Positions 11,550 through 39,156 of a stretch of 47,623 nt of DNA are shown in pieces. Origin of the DNA: Deltaproteobacteria bacterium (GTDB lineage: Bacteria > Desulfobacterota > Desulfobaccia > Desulfobaccales > 0-14-0-80-60-11); NCBI GenBank assembly GCA_016208235.1, contig JACQYN010000021.1:1-47623 (forward strand), given 5' to 3'. Below the pieces are notes generated by a model that saw nothing but the letters and a program-made list of their open reading frames with translations, had not been told where the DNA came from and did no database searches. The translations under genes were made by a program, and so were the position numbers. Each line of letters begins with the position of its first letter. Within the stretch, counting starts at the first letter, position 1.

Positions 11550-12209
11550 ATGGGCTGGCCTGATGCCCCCCTTTCCATTTTGGTCGCTGAAGATGATGAG
11601 ACCCTATCCGCAGCCTTGGCGGAGTTTCTCAGGGGGAAGGGCCACCGGGTGGACCTGGCTCCCCACGGCGGCGAAGCCCTGGTTTTATTGGAGAAACAGG
11701 CTTATCCCCTGATCATCACCGATCTGGTGATGCCCGAAGCTGACGGTCTGACGGTGCTCAGGGCCGCCCGCCAGCGGGACCCGGCCACCCTGGTGGTGAT
11801 TATGACCGGCTACGCTTCATTAGACAGCGCCGTTGGCGCCATCCGGGAAGGGGCTTATGATTATCTGTGCAAGCCTTTCAAATTGCAGGAAATTGAGATT
11901 GCCGTGACTAACGCCACCCGGCTCATCCATCTGCGACGGGAGAATCAAAGATTACTCCATAAACTCGACGATTTGACCGCCAAGCTGAGGGAAGTGCAGG
12001 AATTGCCTCAGCTTCTCGGGGGGGAAGCACGCCCCGGAACGCACTCCCGGACGCTGTGGTCCCCCGGCCCCGTCCCTTTGAAGGATTATTCCCCCGAGGA
12101 ACAACACCAGCAGTATTTGGGGGACTTGGAGCGGCTCCGGGATCTGTATCGAGAAAATATGTTGACCAAAGAAGAGTACCAAAAGATCAAAGAACGGCTC
12201 CTTATTTAA
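11550..12209 (+). CDS. Response regulator receiver with coiled coil and C-terminal SHOCT-like tail
   Basis: VAEDD, ITDLVMP, MTGY, KPF; tail LERLRDLYRENMLTKEEYQKIKERLL. Confidence 0.85.
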   Translation: MGWPDAPLSILVAEDDETLSAALAEFLRGKGHRVDLAPHGGEALVLLEKQAYPLIITDLVMPEADGLTVLRAARQRDPATLVVIMTGYASLDSAVGAIREGAYDYLCKPFKLQEIEIAVTNATRLIHLRRENQRLLHKLDDLTAKLREVQELPQLLGGEARPGTHSRTLWSPGPVPLKDYSPEEQHQQYLGDLERLRDLYRENMLTKEEYQKIKERLLI

Positions 12210-12230
12210 AATGCGTATAGGTTAGCCATC

Positions 12231-13502
12231 GTGTCGAGTCAACCTAAATCCCCCCTGGCCTTCAACCCGCGGAAATCCGCCCCCAAGGCCGAATCCTTCC
12301 AAATGGCTTTGCCGGGAGGGAATTTTACCTTGACTCTCACCTTGGAGCCCCTGGCTCAGTCCGACCCCCAGCCTCCCGAACTGATTAGCTTGAACGATTT
12401 GTCTGATCTCTTCTCCAGTCTCCTGGATTCCCTTTCGCCGGACCAACGCCAGGGCCTCAATCTTTCGCCGCCGCCCACGTCGATGCAGGAGAATCCCGCA
12501 GGATTATTTTATTGGGCCAATTCCATTATGCAGCGCCTGGGCCGGGTCAATAGCGGTGAAGATTTCTACATGCAACTCCTCAGGCTGGTGGTCAAAATCA
12601 CCAAAGTCCGCCAGGCCGCGTTTTTCGGGAAAAACGGGAATGGGCGTCTGCGCCTCCTGGCCAGCCTGGATCGCCAGAACCTGCCCCATGGTTATTTGGA
12701 AGCCGCCAAGGAAGTGGTCCAAAACGGCGCTCCCCTTCTCTTTACCCCCCGGGGCCAGGAGAAATCCCCGCCGATCCTGGCGGTGCCCTTAGCCCAGGAG
12801 GGTAGTCTTAGCGGCGTGTTACTGCTCGGCGACCGCCCGGATAGGCCCCTGGACCGGGATGATCTCAACCTGGTGACCATGCTGGCCGAAAACCCCTCAC
12901 TGGTTTCCGATAACCTGGCCCTTCACGAAAAAAACACCATTTCCCTTCTGGAATCCATTAAAGCCCTGGTGCGAAGCCTGGAAGCCCGGGATCCTTATAC
13001 CGGCCAGCATTCCTCCAGGGTCACCGAGATCGTCTCCCACTTCGGGCGCCACCTGGGAATGCCCCCCGTAGAACTGGAATTATTGAAGACCGCCAGCTAC
13101 CTCCACGACATCGGCAAAGTGGGGATCAGCGATTTCATCCTGTTAAAACCCGGGCCCCTGACCCCGGAGGAACGGGGGATCATCGAAACCCATCCCCTGA
13201 TCGGAGGCAAAATTGTGGAGCCGCTGGGACTGCGGACCCAGGAAAAGGACGTCATCCTCTACCACCACGAGCGCTGGGATGGCCGCGGTTATCCCCGGGG
13301 CCTGGCAGGGAAGGAAATTCCCTTTGTCTGCCGCCTTCTGACCCTGGCGGACGTCTATGACGCCCTCACCACCGACCGCCCCTACCGGCGCCGCTGCAGC
13401 ATTCCCGAAGCCCTGACCGAGATCCGCGCCCATGCCGGCACCCAGTTCGATCCGGAACTGACCCTGGAATTCGTGGACATGCTCTCCACCCAAACCGCCT
13501 GA
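12231..13502 (+). CDS. GAF plus HD-GYP phosphodiesterase (cyclic dinucleotide, probably c-di-GMP)
   Basis: EARDPYTGQHS.RV, LHDIGK, HHERWDGRGYP, ADVYDALTTDRPYR, GTQFDP. Confidence 0.9.
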   Translation: MSSQPKSPLAFNPRKSAPKAESFQMALPGGNFTLTLTLEPLAQSDPQPPELISLNDLSDLFSSLLDSLSPDQRQGLNLSPPPTSMQENPAGLFYWANSIMQRLGRVNSGEDFYMQLLRLVVKITKVRQAAFFGKNGNGRLRLLASLDRQNLPHGYLEAAKEVVQNGAPLLFTPRGQEKSPPILAVPLAQEGSLSGVLLLGDRPDRPLDRDDLNLVTMLAENPSLVSDNLALHEKNTISLLESIKALVRSLEARDPYTGQHSSRVTEIVSHFGRHLGMPPVELELLKTASYLHDIGKVGISDFILLKPGPLTPEERGIIETHPLIGGKIVEPLGLRTQEKDVILYHHERWDGRGYPRGLAGKEIPFVCRLLTLADVYDALTTDRPYRRRCSIPEALTEIRAHAGTQFDPELTLEFVDMLSTQTA

Positions 13503-13667
13503 CCATAACTTTTTCTGATAAGTCCCAACCACATGGCAATTTTTGGGGGCAATCAGTAAGATTTGATGGTAAAATCCGTTCAAAGGTAGCTCAGGATTAC
13601 CCGGGTCTGGACCTGCAAATTTTCACTTACCCCGTCACTCGCCAGGGAGCGGAAAAAGAGAACTCGC

Positions 13668-14471
13668 GTGACTTCCGGTAAACCTCTCTCCCCAGAGCAG
13701 ATGCTGGAGCGCTGCTGCCAAGAAATGGTGCGCTTTTACCGCCACTCTGCCACGGGCCGCCGCTGCACCGGCATCGTTCACAATATGAACACTCCCCTCC
13801 AGGTCCTTTCTTTCCATCTGGAACTCCTGGAGCAAAAATCCCGGGAAGAACTTGATTGCCTGAAAGGATGCCCCCCGGAGATCTCGGAAAAGCTGTACTC
13901 CTTATACCAATACCGCCAGGATAAACTGCGGCAGTTTTATCAAGAGGTGGAAAGCCTTCGCCTCCAAGCCCGCCGCATTGTCACCCAGGGGGTTCATGAG
14001 GAGAGCCAGGAAAGGCATCATCTGGACCTCAACCAGGTCTTTCAAGAGGAACTGGAGCTGTACCGGGCCCATTCCTTTTTTAAGCACCAGGTGGAAAAGG
14101 ACTTTCGTTTTGCGGAAGGCCTGCCCCCGATTCACGGCCACTATATCGATTTCAGCCAGACCTTTCGCAACCTGGTGGATAATGCCCTGGAGGCCATGGA
14201 AGGAGCGGAGGTCCGGAAATTGACGGTGGAAACCGCGGTGGAGAAGGGTCACCTCTTCCTCCGGGTGGGCGATACGGGCGCGGGGGTTCCGCCGGAGATC
14301 AAACCCTGGCTCTTTGAGCCTTTTACCACCTCCAAGGCCCACCATAACCCGCCCCATGCCGGCCTGGGCCTCTTTATGGCCCGGCGCCTCTTGGCCCCCT
14401 ACCAGGGACGGATCCAGGTGGAAAGCAAACCGGGGAAGACCTGGGTCACCGTGATCCTGCCTCTGGGTTAA
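13668..14471 (+). CDS. Soluble histidine kinase (HisKA plus HATPase, no sensor domain)
   Basis: GIVHNMNTPL, NLVDNALEA, DTGAGV, FEPFTTSK, AGLGL. Confidence 0.85.
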   Translation: MTSGKPLSPEQMLERCCQEMVRFYRHSATGRRCTGIVHNMNTPLQVLSFHLELLEQKSREELDCLKGCPPEISEKLYSLYQYRQDKLRQFYQEVESLRLQARRIVTQGVHEESQERHHLDLNQVFQEELELYRAHSFFKHQVEKDFRFAEGLPPIHGHYIDFSQTFRNLVDNALEAMEGAEVRKLTVETAVEKGHLFLRVGDTGAGVPPEIKPWLFEPFTTSKAHHNPPHAGLGLFMARRLLAPYQGRIQVESKPGKTWVTVILPLG

Positions 14472-14472
14472 G

Positions 14473-14679
14473 TACGGTTTTCAGTTTTCGGTGAAAAGAT
14501 TTTTAGGCTTTTCGCGAATTGGGAATGATTTGAAAGAAAGACAATCTGGTGGGACGGGCCTCTGTGCCCGCCTTAAACTTGCCTTGCCGCCACAACTTTT
14601 ATTATTTCCCCCAAACTCTCTTATAGTTTATTGACAATCCTCATTCTTCTTAACCGAAAACCGAAAACTGAAAACCGTA
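14473..14679. repeat. Spacer bounded by a perfect 20-bp inverted repeat made of CGGTTTT/CAGTTTT heptamers, with an internal REP-like hairpin (14549-14572)
   Basis: tacggttttcagttttcggt (14473-14492) is the exact reverse complement of accgaaaactgaaaaccgta (14660-14679); internal gtgggacgggcctctgtgcccgcc. Confidence 0.85.
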
Positions 14680-15852
14680 TTACGGGCGGTCCAGATTAGC
14701 GGATTGCAAAAAGACCTCCGCGGCCCTTCCGGCCTGGAAGTACCGGGCGATTTCTTTCATCCGGGCCATCCTTTCCAGGGACGCGGGGTGGGAATCCAGG
14801 AAGGAGGCCCGGTAAAAGGGGTCCTTTTCCACTGCCGCGGCCAGCCGTTCCATGACCGCCAACGCCCCCTCCACATCATAGCCCGCCTGAAAGGCATACC
14901 ACATCCCGTAAGCATCGGCCTCCCGCTCATCTCCCCGGGAAAAGGCGCTCACCGTGGCCTGGGGAATCTCCCGGAGCAGATCTCGATCAAAAACGGGGAG
15001 GTACCATAACTTTAGAAGATAACCCAGAGTATAGGTGATAAAGGCCGAGACTGTGTCTACGGCCAAGGTCAGTTGGCGTTGGCCGGCCCGGCGCAACCGG
15101 TGCCCCAGGACCTGGTGGGCCAGTTCATGGCCGATGACCAGGGCCAGCTCATCATCGGTACGGCAAAAATTGACGTAGCGCCGGGAGAGAATGATCCTCC
15201 CGGGCGCGGCCCAGGCGTTGATTTCATTGGCAATCCGGGGGTGGGTGGCCACCAGGATGGCGTATTCCCCGGGCAGATGCTGGGGATAAAGGGTTACCGT
15301 GCGTTTTTCTTCTTCCCGCTGGACCAAAAGCTCCACCGGGCCGCTGAGATATTGCTCCCGGAGGTCCATGCGCACGTATTTAACCGCCAATAACAGAGAC
15401 ACCAATAGTTCTCCGGGGATGCTGCCGCCGCACACCGCCCGGGTGGTTTGCAGATACCTGTCCCCCTCCGCCATCCAGGGATATAGGGGCCAGTTGTGCG
15501 CGGCCAGGATCACGTCTCCGGGCTTGAGGCCCGCGTCCTGGGCGGGAGAAGGACGCCAGACCTGGTCGATAACGACTTGGTCCCGGGCGGTGACCCACCA
15601 ATTGAAGCCCAGGAAGGGATAGGTGCGGCCGTGGACTTGGGGGACCTTGCCCAACAGCCGCAGAAAGACCCGGGAGGTGCGTTCCAAAGCCCAGGATTGG
15701 GGAGGATGGCGCCGGCTGGCAGCAAGCTGCAAGTCCTCTTGCTCGCCCGCGGTGGGGTGGGGACCGGTCACCTCCGCACAACCTGCCAGCAGCAGGAGGG
15801 TAAGTAAGATCCGGATCAGCCTCCCAGGTTTTATGGCAATTTCCCTTTCCAA
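14680..15852 (-). CDS. M48-family Zn metallopeptidase lipoprotein with PDZ-like domain
   Basis: Lipobox LAGC; PDZ-like SPAQDAGLKPGDVIL; INAWAAPG, GHELAH (HExxH), EREADAYG, SHP. The true start is uncertain. Confidence 0.85.
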   Translation of the reverse strand: MEREIAIKPGRLIRILLTLLLLAGCAEVTGPHPTAGEQEDLQLAASRRHPPQSWALERTSRVFLRLLGKVPQVHGRTYPFLGFNWWVTARDQVVIDQVWRPSPAQDAGLKPGDVILAAHNWPLYPWMAEGDRYLQTTRAVCGGSIPGELLVSLLLAVKYVRMDLREQYLSGPVELLVQREEEKRTVTLYPQHLPGEYAILVATHPRIANEINAWAAPGRIILSRRYVNFCRTDDELALVIGHELAHQVLGHRLRRAGQRQLTLAVDTVSAFITYTLGYLLKLWYLPVFDRDLLREIPQATVSAFSRGDEREADAYGMWYAFQAGYDVEGALAVMERLAAAVEKDPFYRASFLDSHPASLERMARMKEIARYFQAGRAAEVFLQSANLDRP

Positions 15853-15888
15853 GGCTGCAACCTATGTTGCCGACCTACAGATTTTTCT

Positions 15889-15949
15889 GTAGGGGCGAAC
15901 CTTGTGTTCGCCCCCGCCATTTAAGGGCGAACACAAGGTTCGCCCCTAC
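15889..15949. repeat. REP doublet (REPIN-like): GTAG-led palindrome in perfect inverted pair
   Basis: gtaggggcgaaccttgtgttcgccc (15889-15913) and gggcgaacacaaggttcgcccctac (15925-15949); another REP-like unit at 15986-16006. Confidence 0.9.
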
Positions 15950-16045
15950 ATTTTCTTAGTTTTTATTGTTACTTGGCAGATTGATGGTGCATAAAACGCA
16001 CCTTACGAAAACCCCCTTCTTTTAACCGAAAACCGAAAACCGTCT

Positions 16046-19000
16046 TTAAAAGGCGTAACGGAAAGATAGTCCCACCGTCAGCAGGCGATAGTTGTCCACC
16101 CATTCCCGGAAATAAAAGACGTAGGGATCGAGGAAGAAGTTATGGACCGGTTCCCATTCCAAGGGCCGGGCCCCAATCGCCGTGCTGTCCCACTCCCTGC
16201 ACCGTGCCCTGGAGGATCAGGGTGGGCAGCCGGAAGAACTGGCGGTGAAAATTCAGACCCAGACCCAGGGCCAGGTACTGCCCGGGGCTGAAGTAGGCCT
16301 CCCGGCGGGTTTGATAGGCCGCCAGGTAAAAGTGGGGGTTAAATTCCAACTGCATGCGGGGCTGCCGCAGGGCCTGCCAGGAGAGGCCCTGATAGACGGT
16401 GAGACGGCGGTTCTGATCCGAAAAGAGGGCCCCGCCCAGGTTGCCCTGCCAATCCAGCCCCGGGCGGAATTGGTGGTTATAGGCCAGATCCACCTGGTGC
16501 ACCCCGGTTATCTGGGCCTTTTCCAGATTCTGCACTCCCTGGTAAAGACGGGGATAGATATGGGGGTCCTGGTCAAAGATGTCCCGGCGGCTGTAGGTCA
16601 AGGTGGCTTCGGTGCGGGAGCCCAGGGACGCGGCTGCGGCCAGGGACCCGAAGAGACGGTTCCGGTGTTCCTTGTGGGTGGAACTCAGGTTGAGGCCTTC
16701 GGGAAAATCGGGGTTTATGCCGGGTACCGCTCGCCGGTCATGATCAACCCGCTTCCAGTAGCGCCGGCCGATAATCTCCCCGCTGAGCCGCAGCCGGTCC
16801 CCCACTGAGAGCGGCCCCAGCCCCAGGGCCACCTCGCCCCGGCGCAGGCGGCTGGCCACCTGTTCCGGCAATTCGGTTCTCTCGCGGGAAATCCGGGCAC
16901 CGGGGTTGGTGGTGTTTTGATTGTATTCCCGGTATTCCACCGCCAATTGCACAGGCAGGACCTTGGTGATCCAGAAACCGCCCGCAAGACGGAAGATGCC
17001 GCCATAGAGCTTGTTGCTGTCCGTGAACCCCAGGGCTTCCGGGAGGACCAGGATTTTGCCCTCCAGGGGCAACTGCATCAGGGAAGCCAGGGAACGGCCC
17101 AAATATTCCCGGTCGTAGCGGGAAAATATAAGCCCGGGCCCAATCCCCCCGGCTCCGGTCCCGCCGGGCCCGGGCGATCCGGGCCGCCTGGGAATCCGGC
17201 TGGCTCCGGATGATTCCCTCATAAACCCCGGCGGCCCTCTTATCCCCCATGCCCTCCAGGACCCGGGCCTGTTCCATGAGCAGCTCTTCCCGGGGCACGC
17301 GGCCGGAAAGCTTCTCCAGGGTCTTCAGAGCTTCTTTGTAGTTCCGCTCCAGCCGGTTGGCTTGGGCCGCCAGGAGCAGGGCCTGGGGATAACAGGGATG
17401 TCCCTCCGGGATTTTTCGGGTGGCCGCCTTGACCCCTTCATATTGCCCCTGCTGCAAATAGAGGCGGGCGACGGCCAAGGCCGCGGCCGGATCATTTCCT
17501 TGTTTTTGCAGGGTCTTGAGGACCTCGCTCCAATCCTGGCGCCTCATTTGGCAATTGAGCTTCAGGGCGGCGATCCGCTGATCTCCAGGCCTGAGGGCCA
17601 AGGCCCGGTCATAATAATGGGTAGCGGCCAGGGAATCCCCCAGTTCCCGGGCCAGCTCCGCCAGGGCCAGGAGTTCTCCGGGACTGTCCGGCCAGCGGTG
17701 GTGGCGGTATTCCTTTAAGACGTGGAGGAGATAATCCAGTTTCCCCCCCTGGCGGCCCAGGTTGCCGTCGAAAAAGGCCAAAGCCGCGACATACTCCGGG
17801 CCGTCGGCCCGGATGCCGGGGATGCGCCGAACCATGCGGGACAGGTCCTCATAGCGGGGCAAACGAGGTAGAAGATAGCTGAGAATGAGGAGAGAAGGGT
17901 GATGATAGCGGTTTTTTCGCAAGTTAAGGATTACCAGATCACAGGCGGTGCGAATGATCTCCCCGTTTTTCTCCAAATCCGGGTGGCGGCACAAAACCCG
18001 GGCCACCCAGGCCCGTTCTTCCAGGTCCAAGGCGGTCGGGGGCGGCCCTTCCTGGAGCCAGCTGCGGGCCTCCGCCCAATCCCGGGCCAGGCGGTGTTTT
18101 CCGGGAAATTGGGAGCAGAAGAGGCGCAGGGCCCAGCGCTGGGCCTCCGGCCAATCCCGGTGCGCCAGTGTTGCTTCAATATGGGCCGTCAACAGGACCC
18201 GGTCTCCCGGCTGGTCCAGGCGCACCCCGGCCTGGCCCACCCTTAAGGCCCGTAGAACCTCCAGGGCTTCCGGGGCCCGGCCCAGGTAGACCAAGACCCG
18301 AGCCATCTCCAGGGAGGCCTCCCGGTGGCGGGGCTCTTTTTGGAGAAAGGCCTGATAATGCCCCAACGCGGCCTCCAGGTCCCCCAGCCACAGACAGAGC
18401 CGGGCCTGCTCCCGGAGGAACTGGGGCTCCTGGGCCCGAGGGCAGTCTTTGAGTTCCCGGGCCGCGTCTTGCCAGCGGCGGTTGCTAAGGAGGAGGGCGA
18501 CGCGCTTGAGGCGCAGGGCCAGGCTGTCCCGGCGTTTCAGGATCGCCCCGTATTGGGACAGGGCCTTCTCCCTGGTCTCCGGCCGGAAGGAGAGAACCTC
18601 GGCCAACTGTTCTTGCACCGCCTCATCATCGGGTTTCTCCTTAAGATAGGCCGAGAAGTAGTGGGCCGCCCGGGCCCAGTTCTCCTGATAAAGATTGAGC
18701 TGTCCCAGGAAAAGGAGGACCTTGGGGTTCTTGGGGTCCCGGCGATGCAGCGGGCCCAGCGTTTCCAGGGCCTCGCCATAGCGCCGGGCATAGGAATAAG
18801 TCAGGGCCGCTTCCCAGGCCAGATCCCCTTTGAGCAATTGCCGCCGGGAGGCCTCATCCCAGAAGCCCGCGGCCCTGGCAAAATGCCGCTTCTGGGCATA
18901 AAGCCGGGCCAGGTTGACGATGGTTTCCTGGTGAGTGTCTCCGGCCTGCCAGGCGGCTTCATAGACCTTAAGCGATTTCGCGAAATCCCGGACCAGCAGC

Positions 19001-20036
19001 AGTTCCAAGGCATACCAGCGCAGCAACTCCGGCTCCGGTTTGTTCTGCGCCAGGGGACCCAGCACTGCCACGGCCTCCGCGTGATTTCCTTTTTGGGACC
19101 AGAGGCGGGCCAGGGCCAGGGCGTATTCCGGCTTTCCCTGGTAACGCCCGTAAAGCCAGAGGTAATGGCCCAGGGCCTGGTCCACCTGCTGGGCCGCGTC
19201 CGCGGCCTGGGCCGCCTCCCGGCGCAAGGCCGCATCCTCCGCGCCCCGCTCCAGAAGACGCTGATAAACCTGGGCGGCGGCCTGGTAATCCTGCTGCCAG
19301 TAGTGGAGCAGGGCCAGGCGGTGCAGGGCCTCCTGGTTTTCCGGAAACTGCCCGGCTTCCTCCTCCTGGAGGGGCATGGCCTCCTTAAATCTTTCCGCGG
19401 CCACCAGCAGGTCCAGCAATTGGCGGCGCACCAGGGGATCCCGGGTCTCCTGGTAGAGGCGCTGGTAGTAATCGATGGCCGCGGCCTGATCCGCCGCGCC
19501 CCGGGCCGCGAACTCGGCGGCGAACTGGAGGATCTCCCGATCCTGGGGATGTTCCCGGAGATACGCAGCCAACAGGGCCAAAGCCGCGGCCCGGTCTCCC
19601 AGCAGCTCCAGGGCCTGGGCCTGGCCCTTAAGGGCCCCGGTGGCCCGGCCATCTTGGTCCCAAACCCGGCGGAAGACCTCCAGGGCCGCCTGGGGTTGAC
19701 GGGACTCCAGGGGCCCTTAAGGGCCCCGGTGGCCCGGCCATCTTGGTCCCAAACCCGGCGGAAGACCTCCAGGGCCGCCTGGGGTTGACGGGACTCCAGG
19801 CAGAGCCAGCCCAATAAAACACCATACTGGGAATTATCCGGTTCCCGGGTCCAGGCCTTGCGGGCCAGTTCCAGGGCTGGGAGGATTTCTCCCCGCCCGG
19901 ACGCTTCCCGGGCGGCCCGATGGAGGTTGGCAGAAGAACGCCAGAAATCCGCGTCCCGGCGCCAGGCGGACCACAAGATCAGGCCCAGGAAGATTAAGGG
20001 CAGGAACCACGCCAGCCAGCGTCTTTTAACCACCAT
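16046..20036 (-). pseudogene. TPR-repeat plus C-terminal outer-membrane beta-barrel protein (BcsC/PgaA/PelB/NfrA-like architecture), split into four frames here (real pseudogene or assembly error)
   Basis: N-terminal hydrophobic segment from 20036; TPR-like helical repeats (945-aa ORF); beta-strand-rich ORF 16140-17222; true end in another frame LEWEPVHNFFLDPYVFYFREWVDNYRLLTVGLSFRYAF* (stop 16046-16048, terminal Phe). Breaks at 19623-19800, ~17127 and ~16160. Confidence 0.75.
19623..19800. repeat. Exact 89-bp tandem duplication inside the TPR gene
   Basis: 19623-19711 equals 19712-19800; removing one copy restores ...ATGALKGQAQALELLGDRAAALALLAAY... Confidence 0.95.
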
Positions 20037-21603
20037 AAACCCGCCTCGGGTCCAGGTCCGGACTCCATTGGAGTTTGGCCCCCGCGGTCAACACCAGGTC
20101 CGCCAGCACCCAGATAATGACGGCTGAGAAGACGGCATTGAAGACGATGAGCCGGGGCAGGACCCAGCCCAGCCAGAGGGAGAGAAACGGCAAAATAAGA
20201 TGCAGAATAATAACCCCGAAGTGGAGGGTCAAAGGCAACCAGACCCCGGATTCGGCGAAGGGGTGGCGGTTGTTGACCCGATACGCGGGTTTGCGTCCTG
20301 GGGGATAGAATAAGGCCGCCAGGGTCGCGGCTCCATAAACCGGAAAAAGACCGAACAGCATCTTAAACTGCTTAAGAGCGTTCCCCCGGACAAACAGGTA
20401 GCGGAACATCAGGATGGTGGCCCCCAGATAGGCCCCCCGGAGCGCCCAATACACCGTTTCCTGGCCCAACAGGCTGGAGTCGCCCCCCAGGTAAACCAAC
20501 AGGGGAATCACGCAAAAAATGGGGAAAACCAGACCGCTTACGAGGTAACTCAACATGATCAGCAAAAAATGGCGGCGTTGCCGGAAACTAAGGCCGGATT
20601 TGAAGAGGGGGTTATCCCAGAAGAAAAGCCGCATGGTGTCCAGACACCACTGGAACCGCTGGCGATAGACCCCGGCCAGGGTCTGGGGCGCCAGGCCCCG
20701 GGACAGGGCATAAGGGAAATAGATGCCCTTCCAGCCCCGGCTCAACAGTTCATAGGAGGTGGTGACGTCCTCCACGATGTTCCAGGTGGCAAACCCGCCC
20801 ATCTCCTCCAAGGCCCGGCGCCGGTAGAGCACCCCGGAACCGCAGGAGATCACGGCGTTGGCCTGGTCGTTGCTCAGTTGCACCGCGTCGTAAAAGACCT
20901 CATCCCCGTTATAGAAGGGGTCCCCTTCCGGCAGGAAAAAGGCTTGCTTGGTCTGGACAAAAGCCACCCGAGGCAGCCGGAAAAAACCCGCCAACCGGGA
21001 GAGAATGTCCGGCGCCGGCACCTGGTCGGCGTCCAAGACCAGGATCAACTCGCCCCGGCTGCGGCTGAGGCCGAAATTGAGGTTGCCGCTCTTGGAATCC
21101 AGCAAGGGCAGCCCCGCTTGCGGGCGGGAAAGATAATGGCCTCCCAGGGAGCGGGCCAGGTCCGCCACCTGCGGGGAGCCGGCGTCGTCCAGGACATAGA
21201 CCTGGACCGGGGCATAGGCAATCCCGGTCACCGCCCGGAGGGTAGTGCGGATCACCTCCAGGGGTTCGCCGCAGCAAGGAACGAAAATATCTATGGGATA
21301 AGCCGCGGTGGGCTCCAGGCCTTCGGGGGGATGGAAGCGCAGGTGCCAGACGTCGCCGGCCAGAATAACCAGGAGAAAGAAGGCCAGAGCCTCCGCGCCC
21401 AGGAATAGCACATCTTGTATTCCCGGGTTTCTGAAGACCACCAAGCCCACCCACAAGATATATGCCGTTCCCAAGATTAGGGTCAGGAGGGAGAAGAACA
21501 GGGCGCGCAAACGCCGGGGCCGGTCTTCCCGGTCCCGGTAACGCCGGCAGGGGAGGCGGTCGAGGCACTCCGCCAAAAAAAATGAAAAAGGATTCTTGCT
21601 CAT
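20026..21603 (-). CDS. GT2 processive glycosyltransferase, cellulose-synthase (BcsA)-like, lacking PilZ
   Basis: Two N-terminal TMs, LDDAG, KSGNLN, LDADQ, VQTKQ, CGS, VED, GLAP, QRFQW, then several TMs; ends at 525 aa; overlaps the TPR gene start by 11 bp. Confidence 0.85.
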   Translation of the reverse strand: MSKNPFSFFLAECLDRLPCRRYRDREDRPRRLRALFFSLLTLILGTAYILWVGLVVFRNPGIQDVLFLGAEALAFFLLVILAGDVWHLRFHPPEGLEPTAAYPIDIFVPCCGEPLEVIRTTLRAVTGIAYAPVQVYVLDDAGSPQVADLARSLGGHYLSRPQAGLPLLDSKSGNLNFGLSRSRGELILVLDADQVPAPDILSRLAGFFRLPRVAFVQTKQAFFLPEGDPFYNGDEVFYDAVQLSNDQANAVISCGSGVLYRRRALEEMGGFATWNIVEDVTTSYELLSRGWKGIYFPYALSRGLAPQTLAGVYRQRFQWCLDTMRLFFWDNPLFKSGLSFRQRRHFLLIMLSYLVSGLVFPIFCVIPLLVYLGGDSSLLGQETVYWALRGAYLGATILMFRYLFVRGNALKQFKMLFGLFPVYGAATLAALFYPPGRKPAYRVNNRHPFAESGVWLPLTLHFGVIILHLILPFLSLWLGWVLPRLIVFNAVFSAVIIWVLADLVLTAGAKLQWSPDLDPRRVYGG

Positions 21604-21804
21604 ACAAGAATCCTCTCACCGCGCGCCGAGGCCGGAAAATCATCCTGTAAACATTTAGGCCTATTAGAATCAGCCATTTTCCCTCCCTGGGTGGCTGTCG
21701 GGCCTAACAATAATAAACAATTTTCAACACTTAGGAAGACGGTACCCTTTAATACACCCTTCCCAAGATCGTGTAAAGAGTTTTGTAAAAAATTTTAAAA
21801 ACTG

Positions 21805-22812
21805 CTAATTCGCGGCAGAGGCGGGGAGTCCGTGGTATTCTTTGTACCACTTAATAAAGCGGGGAATGCCCACGGCGATGGGGGTGGTGGGGTGAAAACC
21901 CAGCTTTTCTTGGGCCCGGCGGATATCCGCGAAGGTGGCCGGCACGTCCCCGGGCTGGATGGGCAGTAATTCCTTTTGGGCCTCCACCCCCAACTCCTGC
22001 TCCAGGAGGGCGATCACCCGGGTCAACTCCTCGGATTGGTGATTGCCCAGGTTGAAAATTTCGAAGGGGGCCAGGCCCGGGACCATGAGCGCGGCCAGGG
22101 TGCCCTGGACGATGTCGTCAATATAGGTGAAATCCCGTTGCATCTGCCCATAATTAAAGACTTTGATGGGCTTGCCGGCCAGCATGGCCGCGGCGAAGAG
22201 CCACATGGCCATATCCGGCCGGCCCCAGGGGCCGTAGACCGTAAAGTAACGGAGACCCACGGTGGGCAGGCCGAAGAGGTGGGTATAGGCATGGGCCATC
22301 AGCTCATCCGCCCGCTTGGTGGCGGCATAGAGGCTGATGGGCGTGTCCACCCGCTGTTCCTCCGAGAAGGGCAGTTCCGTCAGCCCCCCATAGACACTGG
22401 AGCTGGACGCGTAGACGAACCGCTCCACCGGCAGGCGTTTGGCCAACTCCAGGAGATTAAGAAAGCCTTCCAGATTGGCCTTCTGGTAGGAGAAAGGGTT
22501 GATGAGGGAATAGCGCACCCAGGCCTGGGCCGCCAGGTGGCAGATTTTTTGGGGGGCGTGGGCTTGAAAGAGTCCCTCCAGGGCCACCAGGTCGGTGAGG
22601 TCCGCGGTGATGGAGGTAAACCCGGGAAATTTCCTTAATTCCCGGTCCCGGTCTCTTTTCAGGGCCGGGGAATAATAGTCGCTGTAATTATCCAGGCCCA
22701 CCACCGGGGCGCCGGCGGCCAACAAGGCCCGGGCCACGTGATAGCCGATGAAGCCGGCGCTGCCGGTGACCAGAAAGGAATATTCCTTGATTCGGGAAGT
22801 CCAGGATGTCAT
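21805..22812 (-). CDS. NAD-dependent epimerase, UDP-glucuronate 4-epimerase (CapI/WcaG-like)
   Basis: VTGSAGFIG, HLAAQA.VRYS, YASSSSVYG, YAATK, FTVYGPWGRPDMA, RDFTYIDD, QPGDV. Confidence 0.9.
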   Translation of the reverse strand: MTSWTSRIKEYSFLVTGSAGFIGYHVARALLAAGAPVVGLDNYSDYYSPALKRDRDRELRKFPGFTSITADLTDLVALEGLFQAHAPQKICHLAAQAWVRYSLINPFSYQKANLEGFLNLLELAKRLPVERFVYASSSSVYGGLTELPFSEEQRVDTPISLYAATKRADELMAHAYTHLFGLPTVGLRYFTVYGPWGRPDMAMWLFAAAMLAGKPIKVFNYGQMQRDFTYIDDIVQGTLAALMVPGLAPFEIFNLGNHQSEELTRVIALLEQELGVEAQKELLPIQPGDVPATFADIRRAQEKLGFHPTTPIAVGIPRFIKWYKEYHGLPASAAN

Positions 22813-22925
22813 GCCCGGATTATAGTAAATAGATAGGGCAATCACAATCTTATACTAAAAGCCCTAGTAATCAGTTGCCAGTTTCCCTGAAAAACCAATA
22901 TTGATAACTGGTGGATCTCTGATTT

Positions 22926-22954
22926 ACTGACCACTGGCCACTGACTACTGGCTA
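22926..22954. repeat. 7-bp tandem array (ACTG(A/G)C(C/T))n
   Basis: actgacc-actggcc-actgact-actggct. Confidence 0.8.
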
Positions 22955-33282: not shown

Positions 33283-34006
33283 TTGATCCTGCAGACCTTT
33301 CCCGACCTGGAGTCCTTGAGCCGGGCTGCGGCCGGACTCTTTGCCCGGCTGGCGGCAGACGCGGTGAACACCCGGGGCCGCTTCAGCGTGGCCCTCTCCG
33401 GGGGGCTCACCCCTCGCCGCGCCTATGAAATCCTGGCCCAACCTCCCTTCCGAGAGCAACTCCCCTGGGACCGCATCCACGTCTTCTGGGGAGATGAGCG
33501 CTGCTTGGACCCGGCCGATCCCCGGAGCAACGCCCGCCTGGCCCGGGAAGCCTTGCTGGATCACGTGCCTCTGCCCCAGGCGCAAATCCACCCTTTCCTT
33601 TGCCATCCTTCACCCGCGGCCGGGGCCCGGGAGTATGAAGTTTTTCTCCGGGATTTCTTCGGGGAAGCGCCGTCGCGCCTGGACCTGGTGTTTCTGGGAC
33701 TGGGGGAAAACGGCCCACACCGCTTCCCTTTTTCCTGATGACGCGGCGCTGGAGGAACAAGGGCGCTGGACCGCGGCCGTGCACGCCCCCGGGGAGGACC
33801 TGCACCGGGTTACCCTCACCCCGGCCTTGATCAATCAGGCCGCGGTGGTGGCCTTTTTGGTGGCGGGCGCGGCCAAGGCCGGGGTGCTAAGGGAAGTAAT
33901 ACAAAAGCCCCGGGACCCCCGGCGTCTGCCCGCCCAACTGATCAATCCGGAGAACGGCGAACTCTATTGGCTGGTGGACCGGGAAGCCGCGGGACAGTTG
34001 CATTGA
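33283..34006 (+). pseudogene. pgl: 6-phosphogluconolactonase with a +1 frameshift
   Basis: ALSGG.TP, FWGDER, SN, LGLGENG in one frame; HTASLFP, RVTLT, LVAG.AKA, LPA, WLVD in the next; extra C in ggcccacac (33714-33716). Confidence 0.88.
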
Positions 34007-34131: not shown

Positions 34132-34206
34132 TGGAGCCGGCACGGGGATTCGAACCCCGGACCTGCTGATTACGAATCAGCTGCTCTACCGCTGAGCTAT
34201 GCCGGC
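34132..34206 (-). tRNA. tRNA-Thr (CGT)
   Basis: GCCGGCATAGCTCAGCGGTAGAGCAGCTGATT-CGT-AATCAGCAGGTCCGGGGTTCGAATCCCCGTGCCGGCTCCA; cloverleaf with encoded CCA. Confidence 0.97.
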
Positions 34207-34402: not shown

Positions 34403-34477
34403 AGGCACGTAGCTCAGGGGGAGAGCACTACCTTGACGCGGTAGGGGTCAGGGGTTCAAATCCCCTCGTGCCTACCA
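34403..34477 (+). tRNA. tRNA-Val (GAC)
   Basis: AGGCACGTAGCTCAGGGGGAGAGCACTACCTT-GAC-GCGGTAGGGGTCAGGGGTTCAAATCCCCTCGTGCCTACCA. Confidence 0.97.
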
Positions 34478-34872: not shown

Positions 34873-36476
34873 ATGAAGACCGTGGCTGAGAAGATAAAGG
34901 AGTTGCAGGAGAAGGAGGCTAAAGTTCGGGGCATGGGTGGGGCCAAGGCGGTGGAGAAGCAGCACGCCAGCGGCAAGCTCACCGCCCGGGAGCGGTTGGA
35001 CCTCTTTTTCAGCACGCCAGCGGCAAGCTCACCGCCCGGGAGCGGTTGGACCTCTTTTTTGATCCCGGCACCTTCCGGGAGACCGATATCTTTGTGACCC
35101 ATCGCTGCGTCAATTTCGGCATGGAGAAGGTGGAGATCCCCGCGGACGGCGTGGTCACCGGCTTCGGCAAGGTGAACGGCCGCACCGTGTTCGCGTTTGC
35201 CCAGGATTTCACCAGTCGCGCCGGCTCGCTGGGGGAGATGCACTCGAAGAAAATCTGCAAGGTCATGGACCTGGCCTTGAAGGCCGGGGCGCCCTTCGTG
35301 GGCTTCAACGACTCCGGCGGCGCCCGCATCCAGGAAGGCGTGGACTCCCTGGCCGCGTACGGCCAGATCTTCTACCGGAACGCCATCGCCTCCGGGGTCA
35401 TCCCCCAGATCTCGGCCATCATGGGCCCCACCGCGGGGGGCGCGGTCTACTCCCCGGCCATGACGGACTATATCTTCATGGTGAAAAACACCTCCTACAT
35501 GTTCATCACCGGGCCGGACGTGATCAAGAGCGTCACCGGCGAAGAGATCACCTTTGAGGACCTGGGCGGCGCGCTGGCCCACAACCAGAAGTCCGGGGTG
35601 GCCCATTTCGCGTGCGAGTCGGACGCGGACGCCATCGAGCAGATCAAAAAGCTCCTGGGCTATCTCCCCAGCAACAACATGGAAGACCCGCCCATCGCGC
35701 CTTGCGCGGACCCGGCTAACCGGCAGGATGCGGCCCTGGACAGCATTGTCCCGGACAGCCCCCGGGCTTCTTATGACATGCACGACGTGATCCGGGCGAT
35801 AGTGGACGACGGGGACTTTTTCGAGCCGCACCACTACTTCGCCCAGAACATCATCACCGCGTTCGCCCGGCTGAACGGCCGGCCCGTGGGCATCATCGCC
35901 AACCAGCCCAAGGTCCTGGCCGGCTGCCTGGACGTGGACGCGGCGGACAAGGCCTGCCGCTTCATCCGCTTTTGCGACGCGTTCAACGTGCCGCTCTTGA
36001 CCATCGCCGACGTACCCGGGTATCTGCCGGGGAGCGACCAGGAGTGGCGGGGCATCATCCGCCACGGGGCCAAGCTTTTGTGGTGCTACTCCGAGGCCAC
36101 GGTGCCCAAGCTGACCTTGATCACCCGCAAAGACTACGGCGGCTCGTATCTGGCCATGTGCTCCCGGGACCTGGGCGCGGACATGGTGCTCGCCTGGCCC
36201 ACCGCGGAGATCGCGGTCATGGGCGCGTCGGGCGCGGCCAACGTCATCTTTAGAAAAGAGATCGCGGCCGCCGCGGACCCTGCGGCCAAGCGCCAGGAGA
36301 TCATCGATAATTATGAGAACCTGCTCTACAACCCCTATATTGCTGCGTCCCGGGGTTTTGTGGACCAGGTCATCGTCCCCCGGGAGACCCGGCCCCGGCT
36401 GATTGAGGCCCTGGAGGCCATGTGCACCAAGCGGGAGACCCTGCCGGCCAAGAAGCACGGGAATATTCCGGTTTAG
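34873..36476 (+). pseudogene. Acyl-CoA carboxyltransferase (methylmalonyl-CoA carboxyltransferase 12S / PccB / MmdA family), frameshifted by a 50-bp duplication
   Basis: GKLTARERLDLF, DGVVTG, DSGGARIQEG, GGAVYSPA, ITGPDV, DVPGYLPG, KKHGNIP; GAGGAG RBS. Confidence 0.9.
34960..35059. repeat. Exact 50-bp tandem duplication in the carboxyltransferase gene
   Basis: 34960-35009 equals 35010-35059; removing one copy gives ARERLDLFFDPGTF. Confidence 0.95.
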
Positions 36477-37023: not shown

Positions 37024-37191
37024 AGCTGTCAGCTATCAGCCATCAGCTTTCAGCTAAAGAATAGCGATAAGGGCGCGCCCTGTGCGCCATTAATGGTGCG
37101 TGGAACTACGGAAAACGGAAAACAGAAAACGGAAAACAGTTATAGGGCGGCCCGTGGCCGCCATCAATCGGCGTGCACGGCACGCCCTATA
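37024..37191. repeat. Two heptamer arrays and a REP-like doublet
   Basis: agctgtc-agctatc-agccatc-agctttc (37024-37055); (acggaaa/acagaaa)n (37108-37139); tatagggcg...cgccctata (37141-37191). Confidence 0.8.
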
Positions 37192-37207
37192 AGCTAAGGA
37201 GTAACCC

Positions 37208-39156
37208 ATGGCTGGAAAAAACCCCGTCAAGTTCACGGACACCACCTTCCGGGACGGCCACCAGTCGCTGTTGGCCACCCGGATGCGCACCGAAGACATC
37301 GTGCCCTTCATGGAACGCATGGACCAGATGGGCTACTGGGCCATCGAGGTCTGGGGCGGCGCGACTTTTGACACCTCCTGGGGGACGACCCCTGGGACCG
37401 CATCCGCACCATCAAGGGGATCCTGAAGAAGACCCCCACCATGATGCTGCTTGGGGGCCAGAACCTGGTGGGCTACCGCAATTACGCGGACGACGTCACC
37501 TACCGCTTCGTGCGTTACGCCGCGGAGGCAGGCGTGGACGTCTTCCGGGTCTTCGACGCGCTTAACGACATGCGCAACTGGGAAGTGTCGGTGAAGGCCC
37601 TGATGGACGCCAAGAAGCAAGGCCTCATGGCCCACTTCCAGGCCGCGGTCTGCTACTCGCTCACCCAAAGGCGCATGGGCGGCCCCATCTTTAATCTCGA
37701 CTACTACACCAAGTTCGCCAAGCGGTCCGAGGAGATGGGCGCGGACAGCTTCGTGCTCAAGGACATGGCCGGCATGTGCTCCCCCAACGACGCCTACGAG
37801 ATCATCAAGGCGCTCAAAGAGACCATCAAGATCCCGGTGGAGTTCCACACCCACTACACCTCCGGCCAGGGTTCCATGAGTTATCTCAAAGCCATCGAAG
37901 CGGGCGTGGACGTGTTGGATACGTGCTTAAGCCCCTTTGCCCTACGCACCTCGCAGCCCGCGATAGAGCCCTTGATCGTCAGCGTGGAGCAAACAGGCCG
38001 GGAAACGGACATGGACCTCGCCAAGCTCATCGAGATCGGCCAGGACCTGGAGAAGGTGGCGGTGAAGTACCGGGACCTGTTGGACACCTCCAAGATGGCC
38101 CAGATCGACACCGGCGTGCTGCTGCACCAGATCCCCGGGGGCATGTATTCCAACCTGGTGAACCAGCTCAAAGAAGCCAACGCCCTGGACCGCATCCTGG
38201 AGGTGATGGCGGAGCTGCCCCAGACCCGGGAAGAGCTGGGCTACCCGCCCCTGGTCACCCCCACCTCCCAGATCGTGGGCATCCAGGCGGTGATGAACGT
38301 GCTCTTCGGGCGCTATAAAATGGTGCCCGCGGAGGTCAAGGGCCTGGCCTACGGCCTCTATGGCAAGACCCCGGCGCCCATGGACGCCAAGGTCCAGAAG
38401 ATTATTTTGAAGGGCTACGAACGGGGGGAGAAGCCCACCACCAAGCGGCCCGGCGAAATCCTGGAGCCGGAATGGGACAAGGCGGTGGCCGACACCAAGG
38501 GGCTGGCCAAAAACGATGGCGACGTCCTCATCTATGCGCTCTACCCCACCACCGGCGCCCGGTTCCTCAAGTGGAAGTACGGCCTGGAGGAAGTGCCCGC
38601 GGAAGTCAAGGCCAAGACCCTGGAGCAGGTGAAGCTGGAAGACGACGTTTACACTACCATCAAGGCCAAGAAGCTCTTCGCCAAGGTGAAGGAATACCTC
38701 GATTCCCTGGAAAAGCCGCTGCCGGGAAAAGGCCCGGGCCTGCGCACCTTCAACGTCTTCGTGGAGGGGCAGTACTATGAGGTGGAAGTGGAGTGCACCT
38801 CCGGCGCGCCGGTGATCACCGGGGTCACTCCGGGGATGATGGCCGCGCCCGCGGCGGCGGCCGCGCCCCGGCCCGCGGCCGCGCCCGCGGCGGCCCCCAG
38901 ACCTGCGGCTGCGGCTCCGGCCGCTGAGCTGGCCGCCGGCGAAGTGCCGCTGCGCGCGCCCATGCCGGGGATGATCATCAGCTACAGCGTCAAAGTCGGG
39001 GACAAGGTGGCCACCGGCGACCTGGTCTGCGTGCTGGAGGCCATGAAGATGCAAAACAGCCTCCCCGCACCCGCGTCCGGCACCATCAAAGCCATCAACT
39101 TCGAACCCGGCGCGTCCGTAGCCAAAGACGCCATCATCCTGGTAATCGGGAAATAA
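37208..39156 (+). pseudogene. Pyruvate/oxaloacetate carboxyltransferase (PycB/OadA/5S-like) fused to a biotin carrier; frameshift near 37375
   Basis: [25 protein letters not shown] in one frame; DDPWDRI, FRVFDALND, KDMAG, HTHYTSG, HQIPGGM, PPLVTPTSQIVG, Ala/Pro linker and EAMKM in the next; about 10 nt missing versus the family pattern. Confidence 0.88.

Follow-up and report, generated by a model that had tools for sequence, protein, structure and literature searches.

The Bcs, Pga, Pel, Alg and Nfr systems are the models for the synthesis and export of biofilm polymers in Gram-negative bacteria. To our knowledge, all of the Gram-negative cellulose-type synthases that have been studied need the co-polymerase BcsB, and most need cyclic di-GMP (c-di-GMP). 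Here we analyse a group of genes from a member of the Desulfobaccales. They occupy positions 14680–22812 of the window, which is the whole stretch of 47,623 nt that was analysed and to which all coordinates refer. Analysis of open reading frames (ORFs) and Pfam domains identifies four genes: a sugar-nucleotide epimerase, a family-2 glycosyltransferase (GT2), a long protein consisting of tetratricopeptide repeats (TPRs) and a β-barrel porin, and an M48 lipoprotein (Table 1). On the evidence given below it is likely that these genes belong to a real and uncharacterised variant of the synthase-dependent exopolysaccharide systems, found in Desulfobaccales (Thermodesulfobacteriota) and consisting of three translationally coupled genes and one unlinked gene.

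The original prediction for this DNA described four co-oriented genes, an 11-bp overlap of the GT2 and TPR genes, a terminal GLSFRYAF and an M48 lipoprotein downstream, and in all these respects it was accurate. All four genes are on the minus strand. The TPR gene starts at an ATG at 20036, and its overlap with the end of the GT2 gene, including the stop (20026–20036), is exactly 11 bp. The last frame piece of the TPR/barrel gene ends in GLSFRYAF and then a stop, and the M48 gene that follows encodes a lipobox, at Cys25, and a weak match to PDZ. The epimerase is less closely connected. Its longest ORF is 21805–22845, with the likely start at the Met at 22812, and a gap of 201 bp separates it from the GT2. 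A scan for promoters and terminators gave nothing decisive on whether it is co-transcribed. The M48 and porin genes are spaced by about 190 bp in the window, and this spacer contains a multi-copy repeat.

Table 1 Features of the locus and its surroundings
Feature	Position	Strand	Basis
NAD-dependent sugar-nucleotide 4-epimerase-like gene	21805–22812	-	Pfam Epimerase, E 2e-54
Conserved hairpin around the GT2 start codon and part of its ribosome-binding site	21586–21617	-	Pairing in relatives
Processive BcsA-like GT2, 525 aa, without PilZ and with invariant QRxQW	20026–21603	-	Pfam, PDB matches, tree
N-terminal hydrophobic helix of the TPR/porin protein and conserved DPDFWRS-type motif	19950–20036	-	Conservation and complex model
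Anchor–TPR–porin gene, true length about 1358 aa, three assembly breaks in the window	16046–20036	-	ORFs, contigs, orthologues
Assembly artefact 1: perfect 89-bp tandem duplication, whose extra copy shifts the frame	19623–19800		Contig comparison
Assembly artefact 2: site of 158 missing bases, in the disordered TPR–barrel linker	17127–17128		Contig comparison
Assembly artefact 3: site of 17 missing bases, in the second-last barrel hairpin	16163–16164		Contig comparison
C-terminal 16-strand β-barrel porin domain, predicted, ending R-Y-A-F	16046–17126	-	AlphaFold2, Foldseek, VIA-align
Lipoprotein with PDZ, then M48 zinc-metalloprotease domain, 390 aa	14680–15852	-	Pfam, motifs
Response regulator, HD-GYP-like HD_5 protein and soluble histidine kinase, convergent neighbours	11550–14471	+	Pfam, NCBIfam

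Integrity and conservation of the gene set

The TPR/barrel gene is present in the window as three frame pieces, with translation passing from frame 0 to 2, back to 0 and then to 1. The breaks are at the 89-bp duplication (19623–19800), at 17127/17128 and at about 16163. Independently assembled contigs of four public runs were compared with the window over 15900–20100: X1, X2 and X3 from a groundwater study, and X5 from a coal study. One of the two 89-bp copies is skipped (between 19622 and 19712) in the contigs of X1, X2 and X5. At 17127/17128 the contigs of X1, X2 and X3 have 158 extra letters, and relatives carry about 220 nt more at the same point. At 16163 there are 17 extra letters in the contigs of X1 and X2, and in X5 as 15+2. 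The X5 contigs do not bridge 17127, and those of X3 do not bridge the 89-bp site, so that each is uninformative there. The lengths 89, 158 and 17 all equal 2 modulo 3, and the arithmetic reproduces the exact frame changes. Since the independent contigs are free of all three breaks, the breaks are assembly errors and not decay, and the gene is intact in nature. The frame repair called for by the original prediction, made through these contigs, restores 1358 codons; the nearest intact orthologue has 1357 aa. A gene in a metagenome-assembled genome that looks broken can therefore be the product of three assembly errors, which matters for pseudogene calling.

The source assembly is 3.08 Mb long, in 272 contigs, and 91% complete. 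It contains 50 exact two-copy tandem duplications of 30–130 bp, and 47 of these are not low-complexity sequence. Because of these 47, the duplications look like a systematic artefact of the assembly. We also considered whether the 89-bp duplication might act as a reversible phase switch, and rejected this because about 47 duplications of the kind occur in the assembly and the independent contigs lack the duplication. The window contains another exact tandem duplication, with a 50-bp unit, at 34960–35059.

The TPR protein has a strong match (E <= 1e-116) in 28 of 30 relatives, mostly as single open frames of 1305–1494 aa. One relative (G029) has only a weak match, and its GT2 orthologue is located at a contig end. 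The other (G016, 97% complete) was negative for the TPR protein, the GT2 and the glycoside hydrolase family 8 (GH8) protein discussed below, and its M48 matches are only at the level of paralogues.

Neighbouring genes were counted in 66 loci of the Desulfobaccales type, with a GT2 at least 55% identical, each neighbour being counted only where there was enough flanking sequence. The TPR gene is directly downstream of the GT2 in 54 of 58 loci, and the four misses are three loci in which the GT2 match is truncated and one in which an integrase comes next. The barrel part is present in 51/54 loci. An M48 gene follows the porin gene in 47/51, these loci coming from two families of the order, and a histidine kinase gene convergent with the M48 gene is found in 27/49. 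By comparison only 16 of the 55 loci have an epimerase upstream of the GT2, and a locus of the same genus lacks it. The genes of the operon overlap or abut, and in several relatives this includes the porin and M48 genes, which overlap in locus L016 and are adjacent in L017. From these counts, the core of the set is GT2–porin–M48 and the epimerase is a facultative neighbour, contrary to the original view of it as part of the system. The set occurs across the whole order, whose members are sulfate reducers of groundwater and sediment.

The pairing of GT2 and TPR genes, on which the original prediction depends, thus holds across the order, and it holds in two other phyla as well. The core pair is also found in Gemmatimonadota and Acidobacteriota, making three phyla in total. 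In two Gemmatimonadota loci the order is GT2, a TPR protein of 1073–1110 aa, and GH8. The Gemmatimonadota and Acidobacteriota barrels align with the Desulfobaccales barrel over 199 columns (hhalign probability 96.4%, E 1.4e-9). These porin proteins do not end in Phe, and the M48 gene is absent from these versions of the operon.

Some loci depart from the common arrangement. In L048 (4260–5459), L078, L080 and L092, either the GT2 match is truncated at about residue 318–362, or a phage-type integrase and a DNA methylase replace the porin gene. Insertion, rearrangement or another fault of the assemblies could account for them.

The synthase, the exporter and the accessory proteins

The best PDB matches of the GT2 are BcsA chains (4hg6/5ej1, E ~2e-41). 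Residues 74–507 align with residues 102–560 of the BcsA chain and the GT2 ends 18 residues later, which leaves no room for a PilZ domain; in the BcsA matches the aligned part ends at chain residue 560–573. There is no Pfam match to PilZ on the GT2, and PF07238 was found in 0 of 120 homologues listed, as expected from its original description as a PilZ-less GT2. The protein shares 32% identity with E. coli BcsA (E 6e-46). The match to E. coli PgaC is much weaker (E 7e-14), and no BLAST match to NfrB was obtained at E 0.01. The catalytic motifs DD, DAD, (V/L)ED and SCGSG are invariant in 14 orthologues, and the channel region is kept. In source databases the homologues are labelled either 'cellulose synthase (UDP-forming)' or 'glycosyltransferase'.

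The motif corresponding to QxxRW was surveyed in the best 150 of 9208 cluster representatives. It reads QxxRW in 78 of them, QxxTW in 27, QxxQW in 18 and QxxKW in 3; five have another residue at the fourth position (V, G, M or L), and 19 were unmatched by the pattern. The GT2s from Gemmatimonadota and Acidobacteriota carry QR[G/S]QW. In a FastTree phylogeny of 128 rows, rooted on E. coli PgaC, the window GT2 belongs to a QxxQW clade of 9 rows (support 100) that also contains the GT2s from those two phyla. This is nested in a 61-row clade (support 97) with mostly non-canonical QxxT/Q/K-W motifs. E. coli BcsA falls in another clade, of 53 rows, all of them with QxxRW. As the original prediction requires, the GT2 does not nest with E. 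coli BcsA, as far as this quick method with two characterised references (E. coli BcsA and PgaC) can be taken.

Three further observations concern the GT2 and its relatives. Residues ~15–38 (21490–21560, minus strand) form an Arg-rich cytoplasmic N-terminus, in which R30 and R31 are almost always kept across the order; a role in regulation or ligand binding is conceivable. At 815 aa the Acidobacteriota GT2 in the clade (L095:8083-10530) is longer, with an N-terminal extension of about 290 residues that has no Pfam match. A gammaproteobacterial relative (L097:5501-9561) is 34% identical and has QRGTW; it is preceded by a PKD-domain protein and a sortase, and is not followed by a TPR porin. The QxxTW sequences, 27 of the best 150 representatives, may represent a different and likewise undescribed system.

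The second protein of the core is the exporter. The last 520 residues of the nearest intact orthologue were modelled with AlphaFold2 using a 36-row alignment, giving a predicted local distance difference test (pLDDT) score of 80.2 and a predicted template modelling (pTM) score of 0.76. The model consists of TPR helices, a disordered linker at residues 131–180, and 16 strands. A Foldseek search with the barrel found BcsC first (9b8a, E 2.8e-14), and PgaA and PelB were also found. VIA-align gave Z 25.3 for BcsC (6tzk; root-mean-square deviation 3.5 over 308 residues), 24.9 for PelB and 24.4 for PgaA, with the next fold, FhaC, at 17.4. The five top structural matches are exporters of three synthase-dependent systems, about 7 Z above other barrels. 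The Pfam family PgaA_barrel is matched at 28.9 bits (cut-off 27) in one orthologue, and below the cut-off, at 18.7–24.5, in three. The model is thus that of a 16-strand barrel of the BcsC/PelB/PgaA type, and the C-terminal barrel of the original prediction is supported. The C-terminal residue is Phe in all 33 Desulfobaccales proteins of the alignment. When the last 37 residues of 12 sequences are aligned, all 12 have the terminal Phe and 10 have a Tyr or Trp two residues before it.

The N-terminus of the exporter provides a clue as to how it might be coupled to the synthase. It opens with a hydrophobic stretch of 19 residues, and a conserved D-P-D-F-W-R-S motif comes next; the Gemmatimonadota and Acidobacteriota exporters have related P-F-W motifs after the helix. 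The mean column identity of the hydrophobic stretch is 0.61, equal to that of the TPR domain that follows (0.61). Such conservation is unusual for a cleaved signal peptide. The GT2 was modelled in complex with exporter residues 1–108, and three controls were run alongside. The interface score ipSAE (interaction prediction score from aligned errors) was 0.67 (0.66, 0.68 and 0.67 in the separate runs), compared to 0.00 for the best control. The pLDDT of the partner was at least 77, and at least 91% of the contacts were common to the runs. Exporter residues 5–35 contact GT2 residues 469–509 and 379–383. The mark used for such scores, which 116 of 157 solved complexes and 2 of 215 mismatched pairs reach, is only rough here, our own alignments having been used. 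The N-terminal helix is therefore, on the modelling, a candidate for an uncleaved inner-membrane anchor docked on the GT2. A similar proposal exists for PelB: the available part of PMC12141448 puts forward its N-terminal apolar stretch as an uncleaved inner-membrane helix, with the protein bridging both membranes.

The third protein matches Pfam Peptidase_M48 (PF01435) with E 4e-19 and 69.6 bits, against a cut-off of 20.3. The assignment of its PDZ domain comes solely from weak Pfam matches (E 7e-4) and a GLGF-like FLGF loop. All 12 M48 sequences that were aligned keep the lipobox Cys25, the FLGF loop, HELAH and EREAD. The scores against the NCBIfam equivalog families of characterised M48 proteases are far below their cut-offs, being 46.3 against 365 for LoiP and 38.9 against 570 for BepA. 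Since the gene link is conserved in 47/51 loci, an accessory role of this protein in the system is plausible. PDZ proteases are able to sense unassembled barrel proteins, and by analogy we propose that the PDZ domain may read the aromatic-x-Phe at the C-terminus of the exporter.

Two more components were looked for genome-wide. BcsB (PF03170) was found in 0 of 5 genomes (the source, 91% complete, and four relatives, each 99% complete), by a search that was positive in the controls E. coli and B. subtilis, although a very divergent BcsB could escape the profile. This agrees with the original statement that there is no co-polymerase. Small stand-alone PilZ frames are present in the source genome, five in number, none of them on this contig. 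A GH8 gene was found in 30 of 31 genomes, in 29 of them above the cut-off. In the source genome (G000:C63:2935-4146) it encodes a 403-aa lipoprotein with a lipobox (PF01270, E 4e-38), which is 31.5% identical to E. coli BcsZ and, over its full length, 32% identical to the GH8 of the Gemmatimonadota operon. In the source genome and in relative G021 this gene is unlinked to the operon and is found in unrelated contexts. The original statement that a hydrolase is missing is thus correct for the locus and incorrect for the genome.

These results bear on the likely product. Because of the GH8 partner, a β-1,4 backbone is indicated, and the product is probably a β-1,4-glucan. The best PDB matches of the epimerase are 5u4q (E 6e-104) and the 6zl6 group (E 4e-49), entries which we take to be UDP-glucuronate 4-epimerases. 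The original suggestion of a uronic-acid-containing polymer is nevertheless weak, since the epimerase is upstream in only 16/55 loci.

A proposed secretion machine and its alternatives

On the basis of these observations, we hypothesise that the 525-aa GT2, which resembles the catalytic and channel core of BcsA without PilZ or BcsB, is an inner-membrane enzyme that would polymerise a sugar nucleotide and thread the chain through its own channel. The exporter of about 1358 aa is made up of the N-terminal helix, a TPR superhelix of about 950 residues, a disordered linker of about 50 residues and the 16-strand barrel, a fold which would guide the chain across the periplasm and the outer membrane. 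As its conservation and the complex model suggest, the helix is probably retained in the inner membrane, where it would lie against the last transmembrane helices of the synthase. Docked in this way, it would form a continuous two-protein conduit with the synthase and would replace the anchoring role of the BcsB tail. The PDZ-M48 lipoprotein would be a dedicated accessory protease, acting most likely in assembly, quality control or processing of the porin, with its PDZ domain perhaps reading the conserved C-terminal Y/W-x-F. The unlinked BcsZ-like GH8 lipoprotein would trim the polymer, which points to a β-1,4-linked, cellulose-like product.

In its most complete form this proposal becomes a self-sufficient trans-envelope conduit of two proteins. 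The exporter would be anchored in both membranes, its helix and PDFW motif would dock on a QRxQW synthase that is independent of BcsB and c-di-GMP, and the PDZ-M48 protein would read the aromatic-x-Phe as a control on assembly. We put this forward tentatively and think it rather less than probable. If true, it would be the simplest synthase-dependent secretion machine known in Gram-negative bacteria, and the first with a built-in protease checkpoint.

A number of points weigh against the proposed system. The GT2 scores 202.7 bits against the NCBIfam family TIGR03030 (CelA), below the curated cut-off of 699.1. QxxRW reads QRxQW in all 14 orthologues and in 4 distant members, with Arg replaced by Gln, and the equivalent of the FxVTxK gating loop is KPxYRVNN; because of these two changes, the sequence suggests that the donor or the product may differ from that of cellulose synthesis. 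GH8 also includes chitosanases, xylanases and lichenases, and the absence of GH8 from G016, the one relative without the operon, is a single event and not a statistic. In the complex prediction, the controls are probably not membrane helices, and thus generic hydrophobic packing could still explain the docking. In many orthologues the hydrophobic stretch closes with Ala and then Trp or Leu. This might be a signal-peptidase site, and for this reason the helix may be cleaved. The AlphaFold2 model of the M48 protein, from a 12-row alignment, is poor (pLDDT 57, pTM 0.49). The correction of the porin gene comes from contigs and not from raw reads; these show the dominant form, so that a minority broken allele is possible, and the runs of one of the two studies (P1) may come from the sample behind this assembly. 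Finally, we infer the product, the export and the role of the protease for every member of the system.

The alternatives differ in how much of the proposal they would remove. The same machine could make a product other than cellulose, either a mixed-linkage or substituted β-glucan or a uronic-acid chain, with the GH8 being specific for that polymer. This would fit the invariant replacement of the Arg and the altered gating loop, the position of the GT2 in the 61-row clade (support 97) and not with E. coli BcsA among the 53 rows that all have QxxRW, the score far under the CelA cut-off, and the 6zl6-related epimerase upstream in the window and in 16/55 loci. However, the epimerase is absent from 39/55 loci, including that of the same-genus relative, and is 201 bp away in the window, and the nearest characterised relatives of the GT2 and of the hydrolase are both cellulose enzymes, BcsA and BcsZ. 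A non-cellulose product is thus a serious possibility but not the one we favour. We think it unlikely, by a further degree, that the M48 lipoprotein has no specific role and is a mere syntenic neighbour or a general envelope protease. It is true that it is absent from the Gemmatimonadota and Acidobacteriota operons, that about 190 bp with a multi-copy repeat separate it from the porin gene in the window, and that its LoiP and BepA scores are far under the cut-offs. Against this, it comes after the porin gene in 47/51 loci from two families of the order, and overlaps or abuts it in several relatives (L016, L017). Its orthologue is missing in G016, the one relative that also has neither GT2 nor porin. 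The PDZ domain is present, and the porin ends in a conserved aromatic-x-Phe.

The remaining two alternatives would remove the system itself. If no polysaccharide were exported, the GT2 might make a periplasmic or lipid-linked glycan and the TPR-barrel protein would have another role in transport or assembly. TPR and barrel folds are indeed generic when taken in isolation. Here, however, the exporters of three synthase-dependent systems make up the five best structural matches, some 7 Z above other barrels, the GT2 keeps the channel-forming transmembrane region of BcsA, the GT2 and porin genes overlap, and the pair is conserved in three phyla, which makes this alternative very improbable. Least probable of all, and hardly credible, is that the porin gene of the window is a true pseudogene and the system is decaying in this organism. 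Three frame breaks within one gene would suggest it, and the contigs used for comparison drop rare variants. Yet all three breaks are absent in contigs of 3–4 runs from two studies. Other genes on the same contig are split, for example pgl (33283–33738 / 33425–34006), there are 47 exact tandem duplications genome-wide, and the flanking GT2 and M48 genes are intact and 77–87% identical to their orthologues.

The proposed exopolysaccharide system can be compared with those already characterised. By sequence and partners it appears closest to Bcs, and departs from it in BcsB, PilZ and the Arg of QxxRW. The GT2 is nearest to BcsA, the exporter has TPRs and a 16-strand barrel like BcsC, and the GH8 is like BcsZ. 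In contrast to Bcs, BcsB was not found in any of the 5 genomes, there is no PilZ, QRxQW replaces QxxRW, the gating loop is altered, and the GT2 is in a separate clade. The GH8 gene is unlinked in Desulfobaccales, a PDZ-M48 lipoprotein is added, and the porin may, on the modelling, be anchored in the inner membrane.

The closest precedent in gene layout is nfrB-nfrA-ybcH of E. coli, which has a GT2, an overlapping TPR/outer-membrane gene and a third gene in the same order, in an operon without co-polymerase or hydrolase. The overlap there is 14 bp, compared to 11 bp here, and the minimal two-protein layout thus has a precedent. The proteins differ, however. BLAST at E 0.01 matches neither the GT2 to NfrB nor the porin to NfrA; NfrB has 745 aa and is annotated as c-di-GMP-activated, whereas the GT2 has 525 aa and no extra domain; and the third gene is an M48 protease here and YbcH in E. 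coli. Taken as a whole, the original reading stands for the gene set, the barrel, the pairing and the apparent absence of BcsB. It has little support for the uronic acid, and the lack of a hydrolase applies to the locus only.

PelB resembles the exporter in its TPR scaffold and 16-strand barrel (Z 24.9), and in the uncleaved N-terminal helix proposed for it in the available part of PMC12141448. The Pel operon also encodes a lipoprotein alongside the exporter, PelC in place of the M48 protein, although the lipoprotein here is a protease. The Pel polymerase is different, being the GT4 PelF with PelD, PelE and PelG according to the same part of that paper (PMC12141448), compared to a channel-forming GT2 here. 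As for Pga, the modelled barrel matches PgaA at Z 24.4 and the GT2 matches PgaC only at E 7e-14. The M48 protein shares with BepA, LoiP and YcaL the M48 domain with HExxH and a downstream Glu, and is a lipoprotein like LoiP. BepA, LoiP and YcaL act on outer-membrane barrel proteins during assembly. The protein described here differs from BepA in having an N-terminal PDZ domain where BepA has C-terminal TPRs, and in being encoded in an exopolysaccharide operon.

The open full-text literature, including that on Desulfobacca with cellulose synthase, gave no description of the GT2–porin–M48 gene set, subscription journals and supplements being outside the scope of the search. In the sections available, PMC8892547 notes BcsB-less cellulose systems only with HlyD/TolC-type export, and PMC7112194 reports apparent losses of BcsB only as gene fusions. 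A widespread set without BcsB and PilZ would be a minimal system for studying how a synthase couples to its outer-membrane exporter. It could show whether the exporter itself replaces the co-polymerase anchor, and what the Arg of QxxRW does.

Neighbouring genes and minor features

The three convergent genes beyond the M48 gene (Table 1) may be a regulatory module linked to c-di-GMP, acting on a synthase that itself lacks a receptor for this molecule. The histidine kinase is sensor-less. In this group of genes there is a partial NCBIfam match to a c-di-GMP phosphodiesterase family, at 125 bits against a cut-off of 400.

The hairpin at the GT2 start codon may control translation of the GT2. In 11 distinct relatives, 85.6% of cells are paired, compared to 45–63% when the partners are slid. 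Five pairs are altered on both sides, a number reached by 13 of 500 shuffles, in a count that is biased toward structure, the pairing having been specified from the window sequence itself and then scored on the relatives. The consensus generated by RNAalifold on its own is weak (-1.3 kcal/mol).

Arrays of AACCGAA-type 7-mers and GC-rich palindromes are present at 14652–14677, 15890–15946, 16024–16042 and 22926–22952. They are intergenic, on either side of the M48 gene and upstream of the epimerase. In the contigs of the independent runs, 15900–16040 has about 10 times the depth of its flanks and many loose ends, which suggests that it is a multi-copy intergenic repeat element.

Elsewhere in the window, two other genes are interrupted. 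The 6-phosphogluconolactonase-like gene pgl (plus strand) is split into one ORF (33283–33738) matching profile positions 2–140 and another (33425–34006) matching positions 136–225, and this is probably another assembly indel. A carboxylase subunit (37173–39156, plus strand) has HMGL-like, PYC_OADA and biotinyl domains and begins only at position 142 of the HMGL-like profile. The ORF at 37173–37565 has no Pfam match, and the N-terminal part of the subunit seems to have been lost or frame-shifted upstream. An Rfam search detected no riboswitch near the operon, and its matches in the window were limited to a chance match to a long non-coding RNA (lncRNA) and two divergent tRNA genes, at 34135–34206 on the minus strand and 34403–34474 on the plus strand.

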